NCBI GenBank assembly: GCA_016927565.1
Contig: JAFGMK010000013.1
Location: forward strand, 8,796 to 72,795
Length of the DNA stretch: 64,000 bases
DNA from: Minisyncoccota bacterium
GTDB taxonomy: Bacteria; Patescibacteriota; Microgenomatia; PFEM01; JAFGMK01
Reading direction: 5' to 3'
In this document: one piece after another, positions 2,808 through 21,472 of the stretch
Layout of the letters: each line of letters starts with the position of its first letter
Numbering within the stretch: position 1 is the first letter of the stretch
Position numbers and translations under genes: made by a program
Notes under the pieces: generated by a model
Told to the model about the DNA's origin: nothing
The model's input: only the letters and a program-made list of their open reading frames with translations
Databases searched by the model: none

Positions 2808-4040
2808 TTATTCATATCTTAGGGCTTCGATGGGTTCTAATTTGGCTGCTTTTTGGGCCGGGTACCAGCCGAATAAAATTCCCACTCCGGCTGAAACAGC
2901 AAAGGCTAAGAGGATTGATTTTAAAGAGAGGGTAAAAGGCAAGCTCATGTAGGTTGAAAGGAGATAGGAAATGCCAATTCCTATTGCCGCTCCGATTATT
3001 CCGCCAAGAAAAGTAATCATCACTGCTTCGGTTAGAAACTGGGCGGTAATGATCTTCCTTTTGGCTCCCAGAGCTTTCCTCAGGCCGATTTCCCGGGTTC
3101 TCTCAGTGACAGTTACGAGCATTATGTTCATAATGCCAATGCCGCCGACAACCAGCGAGATGGCGGCAATGCCGGTCAGAAGAGTGGTAAAGGTATCGGT
3201 TACCGAGGTGACGGTGGAAAGAATGTCCTCTTGGGAAAAAATCCGGAAATCAGCCTGCTCGGGGTTACTTATTTTGTGGCGGGCTAAAAGAAGCCGGGCA
3301 ATTTCTTCTTGAGCTTGAGTCATTACTTTTTCGTTAATGGCGCTGATTGAAATTGAGGAAACATAATCGACACCAAAGAGAAGCTTTTGGGCTGTTGTTA
3401 GGGGAATCAAGACCAGATCGTCTTGGTTCATGAAGCCGCTGCCGCCTTTGGACTGGAGAACGCCGATGATGTTAAACACCTGATCGTTGAGTCTGATCGT
3501 CCGGCCGATCGGATTAACATTTTCACCGAATAGATCGGTGACGGTTTCCGGTCCTAAAACGGCGACTTTGCTCAGAGAGCTGACCTGGAGGCCGGTGATA
3601 AAACTGCCGCTGGAAATGGCCAGATTTCTGATATCGGCATAATCCGGCAGAACACCGGTAACGTTGGTGTTGGTATTATTTTTTCCGGCGACTATTTGAG
3701 CCCGGGATGAAAATTCAGCGGAGATTTTGCTAAGGGTTGTAATTTGGGGTGAATTGGCAATTGCCTGAGCATCCTCGTAAGTCAGGGTTTGAACACTGCC
3801 GCCCCTGATACCCCCGGAAATTTGCGAGCCGGGGGAAATAGTTAATAAGTTTGAACCTAAAGATTGAATACTGCTGGTAATTGATTGCTGGGAGGCTTGG
3901 CCTAAAGACATTAGAGCAATGACACTGCCGATGCCAATGACGACACCTAACATGGCCAGACCGGTGCGAACCTTGTTGAGGGTGAGGGTGAGTAGGCTTT
4001 CAGTGATTAATTCTTGGTAATCCATGTTTAAAAATTTCAA
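2808..4040 (-). CDS. ABC transporter permease, MacB/FtsX family
   Basis: N-terminal TM helix, a large periplasmic domain and three C-terminal TMs. The order is typical of MacB, adjacent to an ATPase and an adaptor. Confidence 0.85.
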   Translation of the reverse strand: MKFLNMDYQELITESLLTLTLNKVRTGLAMLGVVIGIGSVIALMSLGQASQQSITSSIQSLGSNLLTISPGSQISGGIRGGSVQTLTYEDAQAIANSPQITTLSKISAEFSSRAQIVAGKNNTNTNVTGVLPDYADIRNLAISSGSFITGLQVSSLSKVAVLGPETVTDLFGENVNPIGRTIRLNDQVFNIIGVLQSKGGSGFMNQDDLVLIPLTTAQKLLFGVDYVSSISISAINEKVMTQAQEEIARLLLARHKISNPEQADFRIFSQEDILSTVTSVTDTFTTLLTGIAAISLVVGGIGIMNIMLVTVTERTREIGLRKALGAKRKIITAQFLTEAVMITFLGGIIGAAIGIGISYLLSTYMSLPFTLSLKSILLAFAVSAGVGILFGWYPAQKAAKLEPIEALRYE

Positions 4041-4065
4041 TATGACGATCCGGGACAGGATCTTT

Positions 4066-4788
4066 CTATAGGGCTATTTTTGTTAAATTTCTCCGTTTTT
4101 TGTTGGGTTTGTCTTTTTCCAAATGGCCGTCGCGGAGAAAAATTATCCTTTTGGTGCACTCTGCAATCTCGTTTTCGTGGGTAATTACCACAATTGTTCG
4201 GCCTTTTCGGTTCAGCTGATCGAGAATTTTCATAATTTCTATTGCTTGTTTGCTGGCAATATTGCCGGTAGGTTCGTCAGCGAGAATTATGCTGGGATTC
4301 ATGGAAAGGGCCCTGGCAATCGCCACCCGTTGTTGCTGGCCGCCGGAAAGCTGGCCCGGGGTATGTTCGAGCCGGTTTTGCAAACCAACCATTGCCAAAT
4401 AACTCCGGGCTTTTCTGGCCCGGTCTTCTTTGGCAATCCCGCCGTACATCATCGGAATCATGACATTTTTTAAAGCGCTGGTTCGGGGAAGAAGATTGTA
4501 GAATTGGAAAACAAAGCCGATCTTTTGATTCCTGATTTCCGCCAGCTCGTCTTCATTCAGCTTTTCCACATTTTTGCCTTCCAGCAGATATTGGCCGGAA
4601 GTGGGCTTATCGAGGGCGCCGATAATATGCATCAGAGTTGATTTGCCCGAGCCTGAGGGGCCCATGATGGCGACAAATTCACCCCGATTAATCTTAAAAG
4701 AGACATTATCAAGGGCTCTGACTTGAATTTCTCCGGTTTGGTAAACTTTGGCGATGTTCTGGATTTTGATCAGGGGTTGAGGAGTCAT
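4066..4788 (-). CDS. ABC transporter ATP-binding protein (MacB/LolD-like)
   Basis: Walker [13 protein letters not shown] signature [15 protein letters not shown] and Walker B ILADEPTG. Confidence 0.9.
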
Positions 4789-4800
4789 AATTTTTCCCTC

Positions 4801-6033
4801 TTAGCGCATCATCATTCTCCCGCTGCCCCCGCCAGCGGCGGGGCCAAACGGCAAGACGCCATTGCTCCTGTTTTGAGCGGATTGATTGGGGACGGAAATT
4901 GTACCGGTAATTACCACTTCGCCTTCACTCAGACCGGAAATAATTTCGGTTTCGATGTCGCTGGAAATGCCGACCTCAACAGTCTGGTTTGTCTTCTGAC
5001 CGTCTTTTAAAATTACCACTGCTGCGGTTTCTCCTTGATAATTGATAGCGGTTGAAGGAACGATTAAAATATCGCTTTTTGTTTGGACAATGATACTGGC
5101 GGTTGCCGCCATGTTGGGTAATATTTGGCCGGTGCTGGTATCGAATTGAATGATGACCGGATAATTAGTGACATTGCTGGTGATTGTTCCCACCCGGTCG
5201 ACACTGACAACTTTGCCGGTAAAAGTTTTGCCGCTGACTGAGTCAAGAGTGATAGTGGTTTTTTGCCCGGGTTTAATTTGAGAAACATCAATTTCCGAAA
5301 CATTAAAAGTGGCGATTGGCAGGCCGCCGGTACTGATTGTGGCTACTCTTTGATTTGCCCGGGCGCCGCTGGCGGTTTCGCTGGCGCCGATATTCATTCC
5401 TTCGGCAATAGTAACGCTTTTGACGATCCCGGCAACGGGAGAGGTAATGACCGGAGCGGTGGTTTTATAAGCCAGAGCTGTTGAGTTTAATTTGGCCTCG
5501 GCATTTTTAATAGCGTCGTAAGCGTTATCGTGGGCGACTTCGGCCCGGGTGCGTTGTTCTTTCATTTCCAGGGTTTCATCGCTGTCATGGCCTTTGATTT
5601 CATCATAAACAACTTCGAGCGAAGCCCTGGCCGAGCGATAGTTATTATTAGCCGAGTTAAGCGAGTTTTGAGCGCTAAGATAATTGGAATAGGCCGAAGC
5701 GTAATTCTGTTTACCCTGAACGTCAAGATTAATTTCAACTAACTTTTGACCGGCGGAAACTTCATCGCCGTCACTGACATAAACCCGGCTGACGGTGCCG
5801 CTGGCTTGAGTAGTGATGTTTTCAATGTTTGAGGAAATGATTTTACCGGAAGCCGTAATCGAAGAAACAATCGTTCCGCGTTTTGCCGTTGCGGTTTGAT
5901 TGATTATCTGGGGCTTGTCATTTTTTGACCTCTGTCGGAAAAAAATAACTCCGGCAAGAACGACAATAATGGCCAGAAAAATCCGGGTCTTTGACTTGAA
6001 ATTTTTTTTGAGTGGATTAAGAATCTTTTTCAT
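4801..6033 (-). CDS. efflux periplasmic adaptor subunit (HlyD/MacA family)
   Basis: N-terminal TM, a coiled-coil-rich middle and a beta-barrel-like C-terminus. First gene of the ABC efflux operon. Confidence 0.75.
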   Translation of the reverse strand: MKKILNPLKKNFKSKTRIFLAIIVVLAGVIFFRQRSKNDKPQIINQTATAKRGTIVSSITASGKIISSNIENITTQASGTVSRVYVSDGDEVSAGQKLVEINLDVQGKQNYASAYSNYLSAQNSLNSANNNYRSARASLEVVYDEIKGHDSDETLEMKEQRTRAEVAHDNAYDAIKNAEAKLNSTALAYKTTAPVITSPVAGIVKSVTIAEGMNIGASETASGARANQRVATISTGGLPIATFNVSEIDVSQIKPGQKTTITLDSVSGKTFTGKVVSVDRVGTITSNVTNYPVIIQFDTSTGQILPNMAATASIIVQTKSDILIVPSTAINYQGETAAVVILKDGQKTNQTVEVGISSDIETEIISGLSEGEVVITGTISVPNQSAQNRSNGVLPFGPAAGGGSGRMMMR

Positions 6034-8755: not shown

Positions 8756-9735
8756 ATGAAACCTAACAAACACCCTTTCCAAAAGCGAATAAGTTTTAAG
8801 GGCCAGCTTTCAGTATTGCTAAAAGAAATAGTTAGTGACTATCACTTTGGTAGTTACTTGAGTCATAAGGTCATTGGGGTGGGATACGAAGACTTTAATG
8901 TTATTGTCAAGACAAGTAAAGGTAAGTATTTCTTCAAGTTTTTTGCCGACTTTAGAAGTGAGATTGATTGCCAGCGCTATGTTGAGATCATGTTGGCAGC
9001 GGTTACTGGGGGAGTAAGCCATCCGAAGTTATACGAGTCTATAACCAGGGTTACTTTCACAAAATCAAAACTGAGGATGGCCTGGTCAGGCTGGTGGCTC
9101 TTGAGTATATCGACGGCAAGAGTTTTTTTGATCTCAAACAAAAACCAACTGCCAAGGAGAGGGACTTTCTGGTCAGGCAGGCAGCTTTGATTAACGGTCT
9201 TCAGATTAGACCTAAACTTTTTTATGACTACTGGGCGGTAGTTAATTTCTTAAAAGAATATCAAGAAGTTAAAAAACATCTTGAAAAAAAGGATATAAAA
9301 CTAATTGATCCTCTGGCCGAAAAGTTCAAGCAGGTAGATGTCAAAAGTCTGCCTCGTTGTCTTGTCCATGGCGACATCATTGAAACTAATGTTATCCGTA
9401 GCCAAAAAGGAAGATTGTATATTTTTGATTTTTCTGTTGCCAATATCTATCCCCGAATTCAGGAACTGGCGGTTATGCTCTGTGATATTCTTTTTGTCCC
9501 GGAAAGAGGAAAGTTCCAGGCAATTTACCAAAGAACCCTTGATGTCTACCAAAAGGAGATCAAGCTTGAAAAAGCTGAGATTGAGGCGCTGCCTCTTCTT
9601 GTCCGGGCGGCTCATGCGATGCATATTATTGGTTCGGTAAAATATGCTCTTGAAGAGGGGGATTTTGAAGAAAATAAACATTGGATAAAGATGGGGAGGG
9701 AGGGTTTGGCTTTTACTAGAAAGTTTCGGGGATAA
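8756..9735 (+). pseudogene. aminoglycoside/small-molecule phosphotransferase (APH/ChoK fold) split by a single frameshift near 9040-9100
   Basis: Two overlapping ORFs in different frames (8756-9190 and 9094-9735). The first carries a nucleotide-binding loop region. The second carries the Brenner motif HGDIIETN and the IFDFS metal-binding Asp. Reading across gives ...KLYES / NQGYFHKIKTEDGLVRLVALEYIDG. Confidence 0.6.
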
Positions 9736-10096: not shown

Positions 10097-10139
10097 AAGA
10101 TAAGTTATAATGGGCATTAGTTTATGAAAAAAACAATCA
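10097..10139 (+). repeat. copy 2 of the duplicated promoter/leader repeat; supplies the -10 box and the ATG of the methyltransferase gene
   Basis: Same sequence as 7645-7687. The ATG at 10124 begins the 272-aa ORF. Confidence 0.7.
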
Positions 10140-10942
10140 AAACTTGTTATCAAGATCGAGCCCAGGACGAATGGCGACGACTCATTAAGGATAATTTCCA
10201 TCGTTTGGAATTTAAGACAACCCTTCACTTTCTAAAAAAATATTTGCCTAAGGAAGGTCTTATTCTTGATGCTGGCGGGGGGCCAGGCCGCTACACGATA
10301 GAACTTGCCAAACAGGGCTATGAAGTTGTCTTGCTTGATTTAACTCCTAAGCTCTTGAGGATTGCCAAGAAAAAAATTAAAAAAGCAAAGGTGGAAGATA
10401 AGGTTACGGATATTGTTGAGGGTTCGATTGTTGATCTGTCAAAATTCCCAGATAATAGTTTTGAGGCCGTTCTTTGTCTTGGCGGACCCCTGTCTCATGT
10501 CGAAGGTGAAAAAAAGCGTCAGAAAGCGGTTTCTGAATTAATCAGAGTGGCTAAAAAAGGGGCGCCAATTTTTGTATCGGTCATGGGAAGGCTAGGGCTT
10601 CTGATCGAAACGCCAATGTATTGGCCTGATGAGATTAAGCCTCGAGAACACTTTCGTTCTCTTTGGCAAGCAGGTGATGATCAAGCTTGGCGATGGGAAT
10701 ACTATTGCCACTTCTTCTTACCGGAAGAGTTAAAAAAGCTTTTTGCCTCAACTGGGAAAACCGAAATCGTCGATTGTGTTGGTCTTGAAGGTCTGGCTCA
10801 TGCGAAAAGAAAGATTAGCCAGTTGGCTTCTGGTTCACCTCAAGCTTGGAGAAATTGGCAGGAGGCTCACCTGGAGCTTTGTACCCATCCGGCTGTATTT
10901 GCGACGAGCAATCATATGATGATAATTTTGAAAAAAAAGTAA
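10124..10942 (+). CDS. class I SAM-dependent methyltransferase
   Basis: Motif I ILDAGGGPGRYTIELA with an acidic residue after beta2 (VVLLDLT). Confidence 0.75.
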   Translation: MKKTIKTCYQDRAQDEWRRLIKDNFHRLEFKTTLHFLKKYLPKEGLILDAGGGPGRYTIELAKQGYEVVLLDLTPKLLRIAKKKIKKAKVEDKVTDIVEGSIVDLSKFPDNSFEAVLCLGGPLSHVEGEKKRQKAVSELIRVAKKGAPIFVSVMGRLGLLIETPMYWPDEIKPREHFRSLWQAGDDQAWRWEYYCHFFLPEELKKLFASTGKTEIVDCVGLEGLAHAKRKISQLASGSPQAWRNWQEAHLELCTHPAVFATSNHMMIILKKK

Positions 10943-10961: not shown

Positions 10962-11432
10962 ATGAAAGTTAAAACTTTTTTACAGTATAAACATCAGCAA
11001 CAAGCTTACAAGATTTTTAAGTCTTATCCGAATCTTTTTACTAAAGCGGAGTTGAAAATTTTAAGGGAGGATTTAAAAACCGGTGACAATAAAAGCCACT
11101 TTAAGTTTGTGGCGGTGGACAAGGAGCAAGTAGTCGGTTTCATTAGCTTAGCTACTTGTTACGCTACCGACTATAGTTGGCAGGTTAACTGGCTTGCTGT
11201 TCATCCTGATTTTCAGCGTCTAGGAGTCGGCAGGTTGCTAATAAACTTTCTATTCCAAAAGGCTAAAAAACTAGGGTTAAAAAGGCTTTTTGTTGAAACC
11301 TGTAGTTGTCAGGGTGAAAAGCCAGCTAGATTGTTTTATCAGAAGCATGGCTTTAAAAAGATTGCCAGGTTGCCAGACTTTTATGCTAGGAAACATTCGA
11401 AGGTGATTTATTTAAAAAATATTGTAGAGTAA
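10962..11432 (+). CDS. GNAT family N-acetyltransferase
   Basis: Motif A FQRLGVGRLLINFLFQKA; length 156 aa. Confidence 0.75.
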   Translation: MKVKTFLQYKHQQQAYKIFKSYPNLFTKAELKILREDLKTGDNKSHFKFVAVDKEQVVGFISLATCYATDYSWQVNWLAVHPDFQRLGVGRLLINFLFQKAKKLGLKRLFVETCSCQGEKPARLFYQKHGFKKIARLPDFYARKHSKVIYLKNIVE

Positions 11433-11433
11433 G

Positions 11434-12015
11434 ATGAAAATTAAAGAACCGGCTTCTAAACAACCAATTCCACCTCATGCTAAAAGAGTTTTTAAGGGTA
11501 AGATATTTGATGTTTACCACTGGGAACAAAAATTATTTGATGGTTCCACGGCTACTTTTGAGAAAATAAAAAGACAAGATACAGTTAATGTTTTCCCAGT
11601 TACAAAGGAGGGTAAAATTATTCTTAGCCAGCAGAGACAGCCCGGCGGAAAGGGTTTTATCGGTTGTTTGGGAGGTAGAATTGACAAGGGCGAAACTCCG
11701 CTTGAGACAGCCAAAAGAGAGCTTCTAGAAGAGGCTGGTTTAAAAGCCAAGACGTGGCTTCTTTGGGACGCAAGACATCTTTTAGGTAAAATTGATTGGG
11801 CAATTTATACTTTTGTGGCTAAGGATTTAAAAAAGGTCGGTAAAATTCAATCTGATGCTGGCGAGAAAATAAAATTGATTCAAGTTTCTTTTGAACAGTT
11901 TTTAAAAACTGTCACCAGAGATAATTACCGAGATATAGAGATTGCTTTGATGCTTCTTAAAGCTAAAGAAGATCCAAAGAAGCTTAGCAAGATAAAAGAA
12001 CTGTTATTGAAATAA
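11434..12015 (+). CDS. NUDIX hydrolase
   Basis: Perfect Nudix box GGRIDKGETPLETAKRELLEEAGL (GX5EX7REUXEEXGU). Confidence 0.85.
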   Translation: MKIKEPASKQPIPPHAKRVFKGKIFDVYHWEQKLFDGSTATFEKIKRQDTVNVFPVTKEGKIILSQQRQPGGKGFIGCLGGRIDKGETPLETAKRELLEEAGLKAKTWLLWDARHLLGKIDWAIYTFVAKDLKKVGKIQSDAGEKIKLIQVSFEQFLKTVTRDNYRDIEIALMLLKAKEDPKKLSKIKELLLK

Positions 12016-12030
12016 GTAGAATAGTAATAA

Positions 12031-13047
12031 ATGAAGATTAATATTGATAAGCCAAAGATCTCTGAGCTAGGTGTACTCTTAGACTTGTGGCGGGGTCAGT
12101 ATGATTACCATCATGGTCTTGATGCTGAGTATTATGTGGCTAATTCTCTGGTTCTTGATAAGAAGTTTAGAGTCTATCTTGAAAAAGCAATAAACAAAAA
12201 TGATCCTTTTATACTGGCCGCTTACGAGGGAGGCAAGCTTGTTGGTTTTATTACTTTTGAAATTTCCAAAGCCGACTACTTCGACACTAAAATTAAAAGG
12301 TACGGTGAGGTGATTGAGCTTTTTGTTGATAAGGCTTATCGAGGTAAAGGAATTGGCAAAAAGCTAATGCGAGCGACCGAGGATTTTTTCAAAAGCAAGT
12401 CAATTTCTTATATCAAACTCCAATGCTCAACCTTTAATAAAAAGGCGATTGGTTTTTACCAGCACCTGAGTTATATTAACCGCCAAGTTTTTATGTTTAA
12501 AAGAATCGTGTCTGAGATGACATCGGAATATGTTGTTGATTTATATATGGACTTAGAGGGCCAAGGAGTTAAGATTTGGTTAGATGGTGGTTGGGGAGTT
12601 GATGCCCTACTTGGTAAACAAACCCGACCTCACGAGGATGTTGATATTGTTATCCAAAAAAAGAATCTTGGCAAACTCCGGAAATTCTTGGAAGAGAGAG
12701 GATATCATGATGTAGAAAGACCAGACACTAAGCCCCACAACTTTGTTTTAGGCGATGATGAGGGCCATTTGTTTGATATCCACGTTATTGTTATTGATTC
12801 CAAAGGCGATGGGATTTATGGCCCGCCCGAAAAGGGTGAGAAGTATCCGGCTGACTCTTTAACTGGGAAGGGGACAATTAGTGGTCAAGCAGTAAGGTGT
12901 ATTTCAGCCAAGCGAATGGTCGAGTTTCATACTGGCTATGACCCCAGAGAAACTGATTATAAGGATGTTGCTGCTTTGTGCAAGAAGTTTGGGATAAAAT
13001 TACCTAAGGTGTATGTCCATTTTAAAAAGAAGCAGGAGAAAAGATGA
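12031..13047 (+). CDS. two-domain protein: N-terminal GNAT acetyltransferase fused to a C-terminal ANT(2'')/AadB-like nucleotidyltransferase
   Basis: N-terminal GNAT motif A YRGKGIGKKLM. The C-terminal IWLDGGWGVDALLGKQTRPHEDVDIV ... GQAVRCISAKRMVEF aligns by eye with AadB LWIGGGWAIDARLGRVTRKHDDIDL ... GRPVRCNSWEAII. Confidence 0.7.
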   Translation: MKINIDKPKISELGVLLDLWRGQYDYHHGLDAEYYVANSLVLDKKFRVYLEKAINKNDPFILAAYEGGKLVGFITFEISKADYFDTKIKRYGEVIELFVDKAYRGKGIGKKLMRATEDFFKSKSISYIKLQCSTFNKKAIGFYQHLSYINRQVFMFKRIVSEMTSEYVVDLYMDLEGQGVKIWLDGGWGVDALLGKQTRPHEDVDIVIQKKNLGKLRKFLEERGYHDVERPDTKPHNFVLGDDEGHLFDIHVIVIDSKGDGIYGPPEKGEKYPADSLTGKGTISGQAVRCISAKRMVEFHTGYDPRETDYKDVAALCKKFGIKLPKVYVHFKKKQEKR

Positions 13048-13877
13048 AGAAGGTTTTGATCCTTGGAGCTAATGGTTATTTAGGAGCGCGTCTTTATTAC
13101 GATCTTCGGGGAAATTTTAAGGCTTACGGAACTTATCACCGGGAGCAGTTTTGTAAGGATTTTATTCATTTGGACATTACCGTTCAGGATGAGCTTTCTG
13201 AGGTGTTTAGAAAATATAATCCTGATTTCATTGTTCATGCTGCTAATTATCCTAGTCCCAGGTATGCGGTAGGTAACGAAGAGGGGTATAAAAAGCTAAA
13301 TCTTACGGCGACTCGGCTTATAGTTAATACTGCTAATAAAATTGGTGCTAGGGTCGTTTTTATCTCTACATTAGCTCCTTCCATTCTAAAGAATATCTAT
13401 GGCCAGTTGAAGCTGGAATCTGAGGCTGTAGTTAAAAAGGTTGAGGCGGGCTATTTGGTTATTCGTCCTTGCCTGATCTTGGGTTTTAGCCCAAATACGA
13501 CTAATGGTCGGCCCTTCAATCGGATTCTGAAGCATCTTGATAATAAGACCACGGCTGAGTTTGATACCTCTTGGAAATTTCGGCCGACTTATGTTGGCCA
13601 TGTTTCTGAGGTAATAGGGACTTGCATTGAAAAGAACATTTTCAATAAAACCCTTTCTGTTTTTTGTGATTCATTGCAGACCCAATATTCAACTGCCCGG
13701 GACATTTTAAAACCCTTTGGAGTAGTGGTTAAGCCCATTGATAAGGGAGTTGATATTCCGATAGCTGAGGCGGATGAGGCAGAGCTTGAAAATTTGGGCT
13801 TGCCTACCATTAGCTATGAAGAGATGATAGCCAAAATCCATTGGGAGATTAAAAATAGAGGGGAGTTTGTATTATGA
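13044..13877 (+). CDS. NAD-dependent epimerase/dehydratase (SDR) family protein, RmlD-like
   Basis: Rossmann motif ILGANGYLGARL and a catalytic YxxxK (YGQLK). Overlaps the neighbouring genes by 4 bp at both ends. Confidence 0.65.
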   Translation: MKKVLILGANGYLGARLYYDLRGNFKAYGTYHREQFCKDFIHLDITVQDELSEVFRKYNPDFIVHAANYPSPRYAVGNEEGYKKLNLTATRLIVNTANKIGARVVFISTLAPSILKNIYGQLKLESEAVVKKVEAGYLVIRPCLILGFSPNTTNGRPFNRILKHLDNKTTAEFDTSWKFRPTYVGHVSEVIGTCIEKNIFNKTLSVFCDSLQTQYSTARDILKPFGVVVKPIDKGVDIPIAEADEAELENLGLPTISYEEMIAKIHWEIKNRGEFVL

Positions 13878-14506
13878 AATTATTTTTGGCAGCCGAAGCA
13901 AAAAATCCAGCTAGTATTAGAAAGCTTAGAAAGTTTATTGGTGGTAGTTTTAAGGGAAAAAAGATAGCCTATGTTCCCACTGCCTCAAATGGGGAATATT
14001 ATGGTGCCTGGAAAGGCGGAGAATCAATCAAGAAAGCAATGTCTTTGGGTGCTGACTTAAAGATTGTTCAGCTTGAGGACGCCTGTTACCGAGATGTTAT
14101 TAAGCCAATTAGAGAGGCTAATATTTTGTGGATGGCAGGTGGAATGTCTGGCTATCTTCTTTACTGGATAAGGCGAGTAAAGTTGGATAAGGCGCTTCCG
14201 GGTATTCTTGAGAAGGGAACAATCTACGTGGGATCAAGTGCGGGGAGCATGATTTGTGCCAAAACTCAATACTCATCCGAGTGGTACCTGGGCGAGCCAG
14301 AGCCAGGCGCGAGCCTGGTTTCTGGATTAGGCTTGATTGATTTTGAAATCTATCCTCATTACGAAGAAAAGCTGTTGCCTAAGATTAAGAAGCTTTGGAA
14401 AAGTGGTGAGTTATACCTTTTGAAGAACGGTGAAGTAATTACTGTTGTTAATGAAAAGATTGAGGTTTTAGGGAAGAGGAGAGTGATAAGAAAAGAGGAG
14501 AAATGA
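13874..14506 (+). CDS. peptidase S51 (PepE/cyanophycinase-like)
   Basis: ILWMAGGMSGY and the nucleophile elbow VGSSAGSM. Confidence 0.6.
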   Translation: MKLFLAAEAKNPASIRKLRKFIGGSFKGKKIAYVPTASNGEYYGAWKGGESIKKAMSLGADLKIVQLEDACYRDVIKPIREANILWMAGGMSGYLLYWIRRVKLDKALPGILEKGTIYVGSSAGSMICAKTQYSSEWYLGEPEPGASLVSGLGLIDFEIYPHYEEKLLPKIKKLWKSGELYLLKNGEVITVVNEKIEVLGKRRVIRKEEK

Positions 14507-21145: not shown

Positions 21146-21472
21146 TTAGCCTTTTTTCAGCATTTCCCGTAAGCTCTTGGGTCTTTCTCTTTCTTTTCTT
21201 TCTTCTTCAAGCCGTTTGATTTTCTCACTAGTTTCTCGTCTGATTTTTTTCTTGACAAAAATTTCTTTTTTGGCTTTAGCTTGTTTCTTTTGAAATTTTT
21301 CCACTTTTCCGAGAGTGTCAACATATTTCATCTCGCCGGTAAAAAAGGGATGACAGGCGGAGCAAATTTCAACTTCTATCTTGGGTTTAGTTGAGCCGGT
21401 AGTAAAAGTATTGCCGCAGGCACAAACAACCTGAGCTTGAGGATAATAAGTCGGATGAACTTTCTTTTTCAT
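21146..21472 (-). CDS. rpmE: 50S ribosomal protein L31 (zinc-binding type) with a long Lys/Glu-rich C-terminal extension
   Basis: CACG...CSACHPFF zinc ribbon. Total 108 aa against about 70 typical. Confidence 0.8.

Follow-up and report, generated by a model that had tools for sequence, protein, structure and literature searches.

The window analyzed here, a stretch of 64,000 nucleotides, contains an open reading frame in which a GNAT acetyltransferase is followed by a nucleotidyltransferase (NTase). The original prediction had described one reading frame joining a GNAT with an ANT(2'')/AadB-like NTase, and both domains indeed turned out to be significant and complete. Its approximate limits (about residues 1-165 and 185-338) held as to the two domains, but we obtained sharper ones, namely 1-159 for the GNAT, 160-162 for the linker and 163-338 for the NTase. 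The features of this gene and its surroundings are the following:

8756-9735, + strand, gene of an APH-family phosphotransferase, interrupted by a single frameshift near 9035-9050
10124-10942, + strand, SAM methyltransferase, upstream and co-directional
10962-11432, + strand, second, standalone GNAT, upstream and co-directional
11434-12015, + strand, Nudix hydrolase, upstream and co-directional
12031-13047, + strand, whole fusion ORF, 338 aa plus stop, ATG to TGA
12031-12507, + strand, GNAT acetyltransferase domain (Acetyltransf_1), residues 1-159, ending ...FMFKRI
12340-12357, + strand, GNAT motif A, the acetyl-CoA pyrophosphate-binding loop R104-G-K-G107-I-G109 (subfamily alignment A3)
12508-12516, + strand, linker V160-S161-E162 (gtg tct gag), three residues between the domains
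12517-13044, + strand, pol-beta-fold NTase domain of PF10706 (Aminoglyc_resit), Lnu-like, residues 163-338
12625-12645, + strand, nucleotide/Mg-binding motif R199-P-H201-E-D203-V-D205, whose four numbered residues do not vary in alignment A2
12775-12783, + strand, D249, the third acidic residue for catalysis, within the motif D249-I-H251, of which D249 and H251 do not vary in A2
13044-13877, + strand, RmlD/epimerase-like SDR, downstream, 4-nt overlap (ATGA) with the preceding stop
13874-14506, + strand, Peptidase_S51, downstream, 4-nt overlap (ATGA) with the preceding stop

Moreover, a MacAB-type efflux operon lies in the window, with genes of the APH, methyltransferase, GNAT and Nudix families in the vicinity. 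Between these neighbors (APH, Nudix, S51, methyltransferase and GNAT) and those of other NTases we found weak family-level similarity and no orthology. The product of the fusion ORF is identical to NCBI MBN1263212.1 from a Candidatus Pacebacteria MAG, annotated there only as GNAT, and an identical ORF lies on a Logan contig of SRR13394437 that matches the window without a single mismatch across 12,945 bp. The exact fusion protein is already in the databases, and its novelty is modest. A MAFFT alignment of the whole protein (A1) misplaced the NTases onto GNAT columns, and was replaced by alignments A2, A3 and A4, whose register was checked.

Both Pfam profiles, Acetyltransf_1 and Aminoglyc_resit, scored above their cut-offs, the latter in the C-terminal half. 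In the N-terminal half, Acetyltransf_1 (PF00583) matched at aa 43-146 with 69 bits against a Pfam cut-off of 20.7 (E=4.7e-19). The motif YRGKGIGKKLM that had first drawn attention corresponds to residues 103-113 and does contain the GNAT motif A, R104-x-x-G107-x-G109; in the subfamily alignment A3, R104, G109 and Y143 do not vary, and G107 is conserved to at least 90%. The AF2 model of this domain alone (pLDDT 87.4, pTM 0.82) is a complete fold with strands b1-b7, the last strand lying at 154-158. Profile score, motif A and alpha/beta fold thus place the domain in the GNAT superfamily PF00583, within a small subfamily, all named members of which come from Patescibacteria. The aminoglycoside type that had been supposed for this GNAT was not borne out, as its scores were far under the cut-offs for AAC(6') group E (NF043067, 30.6 bits against 140) and AAC(3)-I (NF033083, 23.4 bits against 200), and its structural neighbors are generic, RimI and Naa N-terminal acetyltransferases and polyamine acetyltransferases among them, so that no specific AAC link emerged. 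Of the solved structures, the one that its sequence matches best is nevertheless meta-AAC0020, an aminoglycoside acetyltransferase (E=3e-8).

The C-terminal half belongs by profile to PF10706, with a match at aa 170-316 of 117 bits against a cut-off of 21 (E=1.1e-33) that spans profile positions 4-149 of 149, and M163 aligns with the start of standalone NTase relatives. R199, H201, D203 and D205 correspond to Arg40, His42, Asp44 and Asp46 of ANT(2'')-Ia, and D249 to its catalytic base Asp86, aligning with 'LLDCEP' in ANT(2'')-Ia and 'YLDIHPI' in LnuA; the roles of these five residues in ANT(2'')-Ia have been described (PMC4313920). The D-x-D, the third acidic residue and the nucleotide-binding Arg/His of a pol-beta NT fold are therefore all present. 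The AF2 model of the NTase half (pLDDT about 95) has the two-lobed LnuA/ANT(2'') fold plus an extra C-terminal helix predicted at 326-337, and both folds of the protein are thus modeled with confidence on either side of the three-residue linker. Judged from the alignments, the predicted cofactor-binding and catalytic residues are intact in both halves.

We then compared the NTase half with the named enzymes of its family. It scored 117 bits with Lnu(D), 104 with Lnu(P), 91 with Lnu(C), 79 with Lnu(AN2), 75 with Lnu(A) and 71 with Lnu(E), and 30.3 bits with ANT(2'')-Ia (NF000064); the curated NCBIfam cut-offs are 300-350 bits for the Lnu models and 350 for ANT(2'')-Ia. Since all these scores are far under the cut-offs, the domain is not one of the named resistance enzymes. 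The LnuA sequence from the PDB matched end to end (E=2e-20), whereas the match to ANT(2'')-Ia covers the NT core only. In Foldseek, the NTase model superposed on LnuA with E=3e-13, TM 0.88, rmsd 2.4 A and 32% identity, and on ANT(2'')-Ia with TM 0.69 and about 21% structure-based identity. A tblastn search against 72,556 plasmids gave lnu genes (35-38% identical) and Streptomyces NTase genes (best 44%) among the matches listed, and aadB was absent from the matches listed and from the organism counts. By these comparisons, the characterized enzymes nearest to the domain are Lnu(D), Lnu(P), Lnu(C) and Lnu(A), which are all lincosamide nucleotidyltransferases, and ANT(2'')-Ia is more distant.

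The resemblance to AadB/ANT(2'') proposed in the original prediction therefore holds at the level of the Pfam family, but not as a specific likeness to AadB (117 against 30 bits, TM 0.88 against 0.69). The first block cited for it, IWLDGGWGVDALLGKQTRPHEDVDIV against LWIGGGWAIDARLGRVTRKHDDIDL of AadB, reappeared in the HMMER alignment to ANT(2'')-Ia sequences of known structure (E about 3e-8), but of the domain this alignment takes in no more than about 75 residues. As to the second block, VRCIS against VRCNS, it falls outside the ANT(2'')-Ia sequence alignment, although its C290 is invariant in the clade and aligned in LnuA (IPCIS). A match 'block for block' was an overstatement at a structure-based identity of about 21%.

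LnuA (4FO1, 4WH5) shares with the NTase half the Pfam family, the fold and an end-to-end alignment, and the Lnu enzymes have in common with it WLDGGWGVD, R-x-H-x-D-x-D, D-I-H, C-I-S and F-H-x-G-Y. It differs from these enzymes, which are defined by nucleotidylylation of lincomycin or clindamycin and a resistance phenotype, in being only 32-38% identical, fused to a GNAT and extended by the predicted helix 326-337. Its own clade is environmental and separate from Lnu, with members 50-64% identical to each other. ANT(2'')-Ia/AadB (4WQK, 4XJE) likewise shares the Pfam family, the NT core, the five catalytic equivalents and a similar domain length; its Tyr74 and Tyr134 stack the aminoglycoside, a 4,6-disubstituted 2-deoxystreptamine compound whose 2''-OH is adenylylated, but the sequence alignment to the NTase half stops near residue 90. 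In fact, the substrate-contacting residues of ANT(2'')-Ia and LnuA differ markedly from each other (PMC4313920), so the substrate is not transferable from family membership.

Further fusions of this NTase clade were found. These are NTase-GNAT fusions (P0114 on 11 contigs, P0242 and P0132), a kinase-GNAT-NTase fusion (P0077), a GrpB-GNAT-NTase fusion (P0081, 6 contigs) and an AAC(3)-NTase fusion (P0162). All six belong to the same NTase clade as the window protein (44-57% identity) and carry an acetyltransferase on the same chain; P0077 and P0081 also have the same GNAT-then-NTase order and short linkers. The other acetyltransferase-NTase fusions involve different GNAT subfamilies or the unrelated AAC(3) fold (P0162), often in reversed order and with additional kinase or GrpB domains. 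Because GNAT subfamily, order and extra domains differ among them, these would be independent fusion events, and the sequences indicate that the fusion of this NTase clade with an acetyltransferase arose repeatedly. We found no published description of such a fusion in the literature on PF10706, on GNAT-Lnu fusions or on metagenomic bifunctional AAC/ANT, and a paper on the CPR resistome does not mention lnu genes or fusions (PMC8651080). The earlier remark that no described GNAT-ANT(2'') fusion was known agrees with the literature searched but not with the databases, where the same protein and other GNAT plus PF10706 combinations in both orders are deposited.

Unbiased scans gave about 19 loci. 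In three of them (L028, L029 and L033) the NTase was fused with or next to APH-family kinases; in L024 its partner or neighbor was ANT(6) (289 bits), and in L012 a GNAT. MFS and MATE efflux genes and a beta-lactamase-family gene also lay near it (L004, L005). That the clade recurs joined or adjacent to other GNATs, AAC(3), APH, ANT(6) and P-loop kinases speaks for a role in modifying drugs or xenobiotics, though not for a particular substrate. Other fusion partners are regulators, HAD, His_Phos_1 and redoxin domains, so that the tight packing of operons, and not a functional coupling, may account for some of the fusions. As to the NTase-fused kinases, one is FlaR/adenylate-kinase-like and another weakly matches Gar/GrdA and PSTK.

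The best explanation of the whole, which we hold to be fairly probable, is a genuine fusion of a GNAT and a Lnu-like NTase with independent heads, likely serving in drug or xenobiotic inactivation. In the NTase half, D203, D205 and D249 would hold two Mg2+, and an NTP would donate its NMP to a hydroxyl group on a small molecule that bears a sugar, a transfer proposed by analogy with LnuA and ANT(2'')-Ia. The GNAT half would transfer acetyl from acetyl-CoA to an amine. The two catalytic heads would act independently on one polypeptide, with the fusion ensuring 1:1 co-expression; the three-residue linker and an inter-domain arrangement that is not confident in the full-length AF2 model (pTM only 0.57) suggest such independence. 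Most likely, the protein serves to inactivate xenobiotics or compounds resembling antibiotics, which may be lincosamides, aminoglycosides or others; its locus holds further small-molecule-modifying enzymes beside an efflux pump. Against this count the matches to named resistance enzymes, every one of which is far under its cut-off, and the generic structural neighbors of the GNAT. On a lincosamide, a GNAT would find no free amine to acetylate, which makes a lincosamide unlikely as the common substrate of both halves.

Aminoglycosides, unlike lincosamides, carry both amines and hydroxyls, and the pairing of a GNAT with an NTase would be chemically sensible for them. A bifunctional aminoglycoside enzyme, in which an AAC-type GNAT and an ANT(2'')/AadB-like adenylyltransferase act on kanamycin, gentamicin and tobramycin, also agrees with the Pfam family and the R-x-H-x-D-x-D and third-Asp motifs shared with ANT(2'')-Ia. 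The NTase half (176 aa, with the predicted helix 326-337) is nearer in length to ANT(2'')-Ia (177 aa) than to LnuA (161 aa), NTase relatives adjoin or are fused with APH-family, ANT(6) and AAC(3) genes, and meta-AAC0020 heads the solved structures matched by the GNAT. We nevertheless consider this enzyme unlikely, because the ANT(2'')-Ia score (30 bits against 71-117 for Lnu) and structural match (TM 0.69 and 21% against 0.88 and 32% for LnuA) are the poorer ones, aadB was not among the plasmid matches listed, substrate contacts differ even between ANT(2'')-Ia and LnuA, and the GNAT is structurally non-specific with AAC scores far under the cut-offs.

The second alternative accepts the fusion as real and gives it a housekeeping role, for example in salvaging cofactors or nucleotides, in repairing metabolites, or in modifying proteins or tRNA. 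The clade has Nudix, HAD, His_Phos_1, UPRTase, PNPOx and AAA_18/AAA_28/AAA_33 P-loop kinases among its partners and neighbors, and the Nudix, HAD, UPRTase and PNPOx neighbors fit housekeeping metabolite chemistry as well as they fit drug inactivation. RimI, Naa and polyamine acetyltransferases among the fold neighbors of the GNAT point the same way, as do the retention of the NTase clade in many reduced CPR genomes and the APH-like gene of the window, which is nearer to type-II homoserine kinase or CcrZ than to APH resistance enzymes. We regard this role as distinctly unlikely, since every functionally named PF10706 member matched here is an antibiotic nucleotidyltransferase (PMC4313920 among the sources), the APH(3')-like, ANT(6) and AAC(3) neighbors indicate drug-modification enzymes, and the NTase-fused kinases are not NadR-like. 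For the kinase-NTase fusions, a NadR-like NR-kinase/NMN-adenylyltransferase salvage was considered and rejected, the kinases matching FlaR/adenylate-kinase-like, PSTK and Gar-like proteins; moreover, pol-beta NTases are not known to form pyrophosphate bonds.

The third alternative concerns the junction, where the assembled letters read atcgtgtctgagatgaca. Standalone GNAT relatives (84%, 77% and 50-60% identity) all end in ...FKKI/KRI plus 0-4 residues, that is, at the start of the linker, and standalone NTases open with M...(T/S).(D/E)V..LY, aligning with M163-TSEYVVDLY. As these ends and starts coincide with the edges of the linker, both halves are full length. GC3 is equal in the two halves at 0.385 and 0.388, which speaks neither for nor against a recent acquisition of the NTase half, and we found no frameshift signature in either. 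The fusion might still be an artefact or a minor variant of abutting, coupled GNAT and NTase genes, whose stop or frame was lost by a consensus error or in a rare allele. The linker is just 3 codons, with GAG (E162) one substitution from TAG, and either alternative frame has a TGA, at 12511-12513 and within the 'ATGA' of M163. The stop of the closest GNAT relative overlaps the next gene as ATGA, and L033 has a zero-spacer 'stop-ATG' junction upstream of an NTase. The nearby APH-like gene is frameshifted, the fusion comes from one sample only, and most comparable acetyltransferase-NTase fusions are likewise singletons. Against such an origin, two different assemblers gave the identical sequence, the junction has no homopolymer run, where indel errors concentrate, both halves are in frame with all conserved residues kept, and same-order short-linker fusions occur elsewhere on multiple contigs (P0081, 6 contigs; P0077). 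A Shine-Dalgarno-like motif is also absent before M163, although several genes of the same genome have none either. All in all, an artefact or variant seems distinctly unlikely. The possibility raised at the outset, that separate genes had been joined by error, is thus countered by the agreement of assemblers and the lack of a frameshift signature, but kept alive by the one-mutation junction and the single sample.

The exact fusion is a singleton, with one cluster member in one sample, and no second copy was found in a scan of 185,579 species genomes or in a JGI metagenome scan. L033, a candidate for a second copy spanning the junction, was rejected as an APH gene abutting an NTase gene. The closest GNAT relatives, 84% and 77% identical, are standalone with unrelated neighbors, and no GNAT-NTase synteny was conserved among them (P0271 in L002; P0272 in L003 and L023); downstream of these GNATs are a CN_hydrolase and a peptidase-like gene, with no NTase. 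The window gene looks like a genuine, lineage-specific in-frame fusion of formerly separate genes, which were probably translationally coupled before joining.

Beyond the preferred explanation, a genuine fusion with independent heads, a bolder view is conceivable. The Lnu-like PF10706 clade may be a widespread environmental family of antibiotic nucleotidyltransferases, so far unrecognized, that repeatedly recruits drug-modifying modules such as GNAT, AAC(3), APH, ANT(6) and Gar-like P-loop kinases, with the window protein acetylating and nucleotidylating the same aminoglycoside-like amino-sugar antibiotic. We rate this a long shot; if true, it would represent a GNAT-ANT combination not yet described, in a host-dependent CPR bacterium near antibiotic producers. 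The significance of the window gene itself is limited: it is a singleton fusion, already deposited, and cooperation of its two predicted activities is not in evidence. The clade-wide pattern is the more useful outcome: as the clade keeps recurring with APH, ANT(6), AAC(3), GNAT and P-loop kinases, it is a reasonable target for functional resistome screens.

The known bifunctional aminoglycoside-modifying enzymes include AAC(6')-Ie-APH(2'')-Ia and ANT(3'')-Ii-AAC(6')-IId, which, like the window protein, carry a GNAT and a second group-transfer enzyme on one polypeptide. The window protein stands apart from these characterized enzymes in that neither half reaches the cut-off of a named AAC, APH or ANT; its GNAT is not a recognized AAC(6') and its dual function is a predicted one. 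Its partner is an NTase of the PF10706 Lnu/ANT(2'') family, where the known enzymes have APH or ANT(3''). If both halves act on antibiotics, genome-reduced CPR bacteria would carry composite drug-modifying enzymes, and a new domain combination would join the few bifunctional drug-modifying enzymes.

The window encodes, in a tightly packed and co-directional run of small enzymes, a protein in which a GNAT domain is followed by a nucleotidyltransferase (NTase) domain. Besides the fusion, the run contains CYTH and SRPBCC genes, a split APH-like gene, a SAM methyltransferase, a second GNAT, a Nudix hydrolase, an RmlD-like SDR and a Peptidase_S51 gene. The principal features are:

2808-6033, minus strand: MacAB-type efflux operon (MacB_PCD/FtsX permease, ABC ATPase, HlyD/MacA-like adaptor), immediately upstream of the small-enzyme cluster
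8756-9735, plus strand: APH-family phosphotransferase gene, interrupted by one frameshift near 9035-9050
12031-13047, plus strand: fusion ORF, ATG to TGA, 338 residues
20397-21095, minus strand: peptide-chain release-factor gene, 231 aa only, with PCRF profile positions 101-194 and the RF-1 domain

The release factor lacks about 100 N-terminal residues (domain 1), for which there is no space before rpmE (about 21146-21472), and it may be naturally truncated in this CPR genome.

In Pfam, Acetyltransf_1 (GNAT) matches residues 43-146 of the fusion with 69 bits (cut-off 20.7) and Aminoglyc_resit (PF10706) matches residues 170-316 with 117 bits (cut-off 21), the latter over its whole 149-position profile. 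The two domains do not overlap and both are far above threshold; these profiles assign the protein to PF10706 and to the GNAT superfamily. The two-domain composition of the original prediction is thus recovered, as is its motif A string YRGKGIGKKLM, which occupies residues 103-113 and includes R104-x-x-G107-x-G109.

The family PF10706 comprises the Lnu(A/C/D/E/P) lincosamide nucleotidyltransferases as well as ANT(2'')-Ia. The C-terminal half had been taken as specifically AadB-like, and an HMMER comparison with the sequences of the ANT(2'')-Ia crystal structures does return the same block, WLDGGWGVD...HEDVDIV (E about 3e-8). However, this half scores 117 bits with the NCBIfam model of Lnu(D), 104 with Lnu(P), 91 with Lnu(C), 79 with Lnu(AN2), 75 with Lnu(A) and 71 with Lnu(E), versus 30 with ANT(2'')-Ia; all these values miss the cut-offs of 300-350 bits, and the domain is far from each named enzyme. 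The LnuA PDB chain aligns end to end (E=2e-20), whereas the ANT(2'')-Ia chains align over the NT core only, about 75 residues. An AlphaFold2 model based on a register-checked alignment (pLDDT about 95 for the NTase half) was matched by Foldseek to LnuA with TM 0.88, rmsd 2.4 A and 32% identity, versus TM 0.69 and 21% identity for ANT(2'')-Ia. In tblastn of 72,556 plasmids every match was below 60% identity, the top one being a Streptomyces gene (44%), followed by Lnu(P) (38%), Lnu(A) and Lnu(AN2) (36% each) and Lnu(C) (35%); aadB was absent among the 25 matches listed and the organism counts. From these comparisons we regard the NTase half as Lnu-like and not AadB-like.

Standalone proteins of about 185-200 aa with 50-64% identity to the domain form, together with it, a large environmental clade; its members occur in Saccharibacteria, Paceibacterota, Portnoybacteria, Parcubacteria, Legionellales and other groups. 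ANT(2'')-Ia depends on Arg40 and His42 for the nucleotide, on Asp44 and Asp46 for Mg2+ and on Asp86 as the catalytic base (PMC4313920). Their counterparts in the fusion, R199, H201, D203, D205 and D249, are all five invariant in the clade alignment, so the NTase half is very probably catalytically competent.

The GNAT half falls in a small subfamily whose organism-named members are all from Patescibacteria and whose hallmark is the N-terminal segment LW..QY.YHH.LD..YYV; motif A is intact and Y143 is conserved. Folded alone, it is predicted to form a complete GNAT fold (pLDDT 87, pTM 0.82) with the final strand at residues 154-158. Its structural neighbours are generic, none above TM 0.76, and include uncharacterised GNATs, RimI/Naa N-terminal acetyltransferases, PaiA/SSAT polyamine acetyltransferases and the aminoglycoside acetyltransferase meta-AAC0020; AAC-family cut-offs are far from reached (AAC(6') group E, 30.6 bits vs 140). 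The subfamily also occurs fused, since the 328-aa protein P0145 is a tandem GNAT-GNAT with two copies of it.

Standalone GNAT relatives (P0271 with 84% identity, P0272 with 77%, others 50-60%) stop at ...FKK(I/V/L) plus 0-4 residues, the point where the fusion reads on through V160-S161-E162, and the start motif of standalone NTases aligns with M163-TSEYVVDLY. Because these ends match the linker borders, the protein is best read as two complete gene products joined through a three-residue linker. A frameshift within either gene is argued against because no conserved residue is missing from either half. The identical protein is deposited at NCBI (MBN1263212.1, 'GNAT family N-acetyltransferase', from a Candidatus Pacebacteria/Paceibacterota MAG), and gene calling on a Logan contig assembled independently from run SRR13394437 yields it too. 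This contig agrees with the window at 100% identity along 12,945 bp, but it comes from the same sample and thus is no biological replicate. No homopolymer occurs in the DNA across the junction (atc gtg tct gag ATG Aca), but both alternative frames there contain TGA, and the linker codon GAG is one substitution from TAG. In the closest GNAT relative the GNAT stop and the next gene's ATG overlap as ATGA, and at another locus (L033) the stop codon of an APH gene immediately adjoins the NTase start codon. One small mutation or one consensus error would therefore be enough to turn a coupled gene pair into a fusion. Consecutive cluster genes in the window overlap likewise by 4 nt (ATGA) at 13044-13047 and 13874-13877, which indicates translational coupling, an arrangement that readily yields fusions upon stop-codon loss. 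Caution over an artefact or minor variant is also prompted by the lack of a second copy in 185,579 species-representative genomes or JGI metagenomes, by the genes downstream of the closest GNAT relatives, which are unrelated to the NTase, and by the split APH-like neighbour, which passes from '...GGVSHPKLYES' in frame 2 to 'NQGYFHKIKTEDGLVRLVALEYIDG...' in frame 1. That neighbour reflects either pseudogenisation or an indel error at this spot, and in NCBIfam it matches type-II homoserine kinase and CcrZ best rather than the APH resistance enzymes. Against the matching domain ends, the intact residues and the two records of the same protein, we consider such an origin improbable, and the fusion is taken as real and plausible, but a singleton.

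The NTase clade is prone to fusion to a striking degree. PF10706 was present in 37/37 long (280 aa or more) cluster representatives from an exhaustive search.

Additional domains in the long representatives:
GNAT: 7
methyltransferase: 3
P-loop kinase (AAA_18 / AAA_28): 3
GrpB: 1
AAC(3)-type Antibiotic_NAT: 1 (P0162)
glyoxalase / bleomycin-resistance: 1
HAD, His_Phos_1, GntR-FCD, redoxin: 1 each
tandem NTase: P0002, P0125, P0133

Fused members include P0044, P0080, P0093, L012:3422-4522, L017:3422-4507 and L028:424-1899; Ser_hydrolase recurs as a partner across different phyla. The other GNAT+NTase proteins arose independently, because their GNAT subfamilies differ from that in the window and both domain orders are found. 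Among them, P0114 (NTase-GNAT) occurs on 11 contigs, invariably after a P-loop kinase gene, and P0081 (GrpB-GNAT-NTase) on 6 contigs after a beta-lactamase-family gene. The kinase upstream of P0114 (L007:5487-6011) weakly matches Gar/GrdA gentamicin-resistance ATP-binding proteins (30 bits vs cut-off 170) and also PSTK. A trio of kinase, NTase and GNAT is also found on one chain in P0077 (kinase-GNAT-NTase), flanked by a Tn3 transposase and an MFS gene on one side and by a GNAT and a MATE efflux gene on the other.

Unbiased scans gave roughly 19 independent NTase loci, including:

L028: NTase-APH fusion
L029: AAA_28 kinase, NTase, APH (top NCBIfam match APH(3'))
L033: APH (top NCBIfam match APH(3')) directly abutting NTase
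L024: NTase, then ANT(6), 289 bits
L012: Ser_hydrolase-NTase fusion, then GNAT
L017: Ser_hydrolase-NTase fusion
L025: NTase, then Nudix
L022: NTase, then Peptidase_S51
L011: AAA_33 kinase, NTase, His_Phos_1

In L024 a standalone NTase of this clade is followed directly, at 1188-2054 on the plus strand, by a gene with strong homology to ANT(6)/streptomycin adenylyltransferase (Pfam E=1e-117; ANT_6 cut-off 420). Because such partners and neighbours recur, they support a small-molecule or drug-modification role. The aminoglycoside idea of the original prediction also gains some contextual support. Both points come from a small sample, though, in which all these neighbours score under the curated cut-offs for resistance genes, and further neighbours are enzymes of housekeeping type.

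The chain carries two intact predicted catalytic domains and a very short linker; the full-length model gives no confident inter-domain geometry (pTM 0.57, residues 146-160 of low confidence). By homology with LnuA and ANT(2'')-Ia (PMC4313920), the NTase head would use two metal ions to pass an NMP directly from an NTP to a hydroxyl of the substrate. The GNAT head would transfer acetyl from acetyl-CoA to an amine. Most likely the two heads are independent and merely co-expressed at 1:1. Any shared substrate would need both an amine and a hydroxyl, as in aminoglycosides; lincosamides are not known to carry a free amine.

A GNAT fused to a Lnu/ANT(2'')-family domain was not described in the literature searched, in line with the original prediction, and a survey of the CPR resistome mentions neither lnu genes nor fusions (PMC8651080). 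The publicly deposited sequence carries a generic name, and databases already contain similar architectures. Scores short of the curated cut-offs place the fusion outside ANT(2'')-Ia, every named Lnu family and every AAC family, and its likeness to the known bifunctional aminoglycoside-modifying enzymes is one of concept alone.
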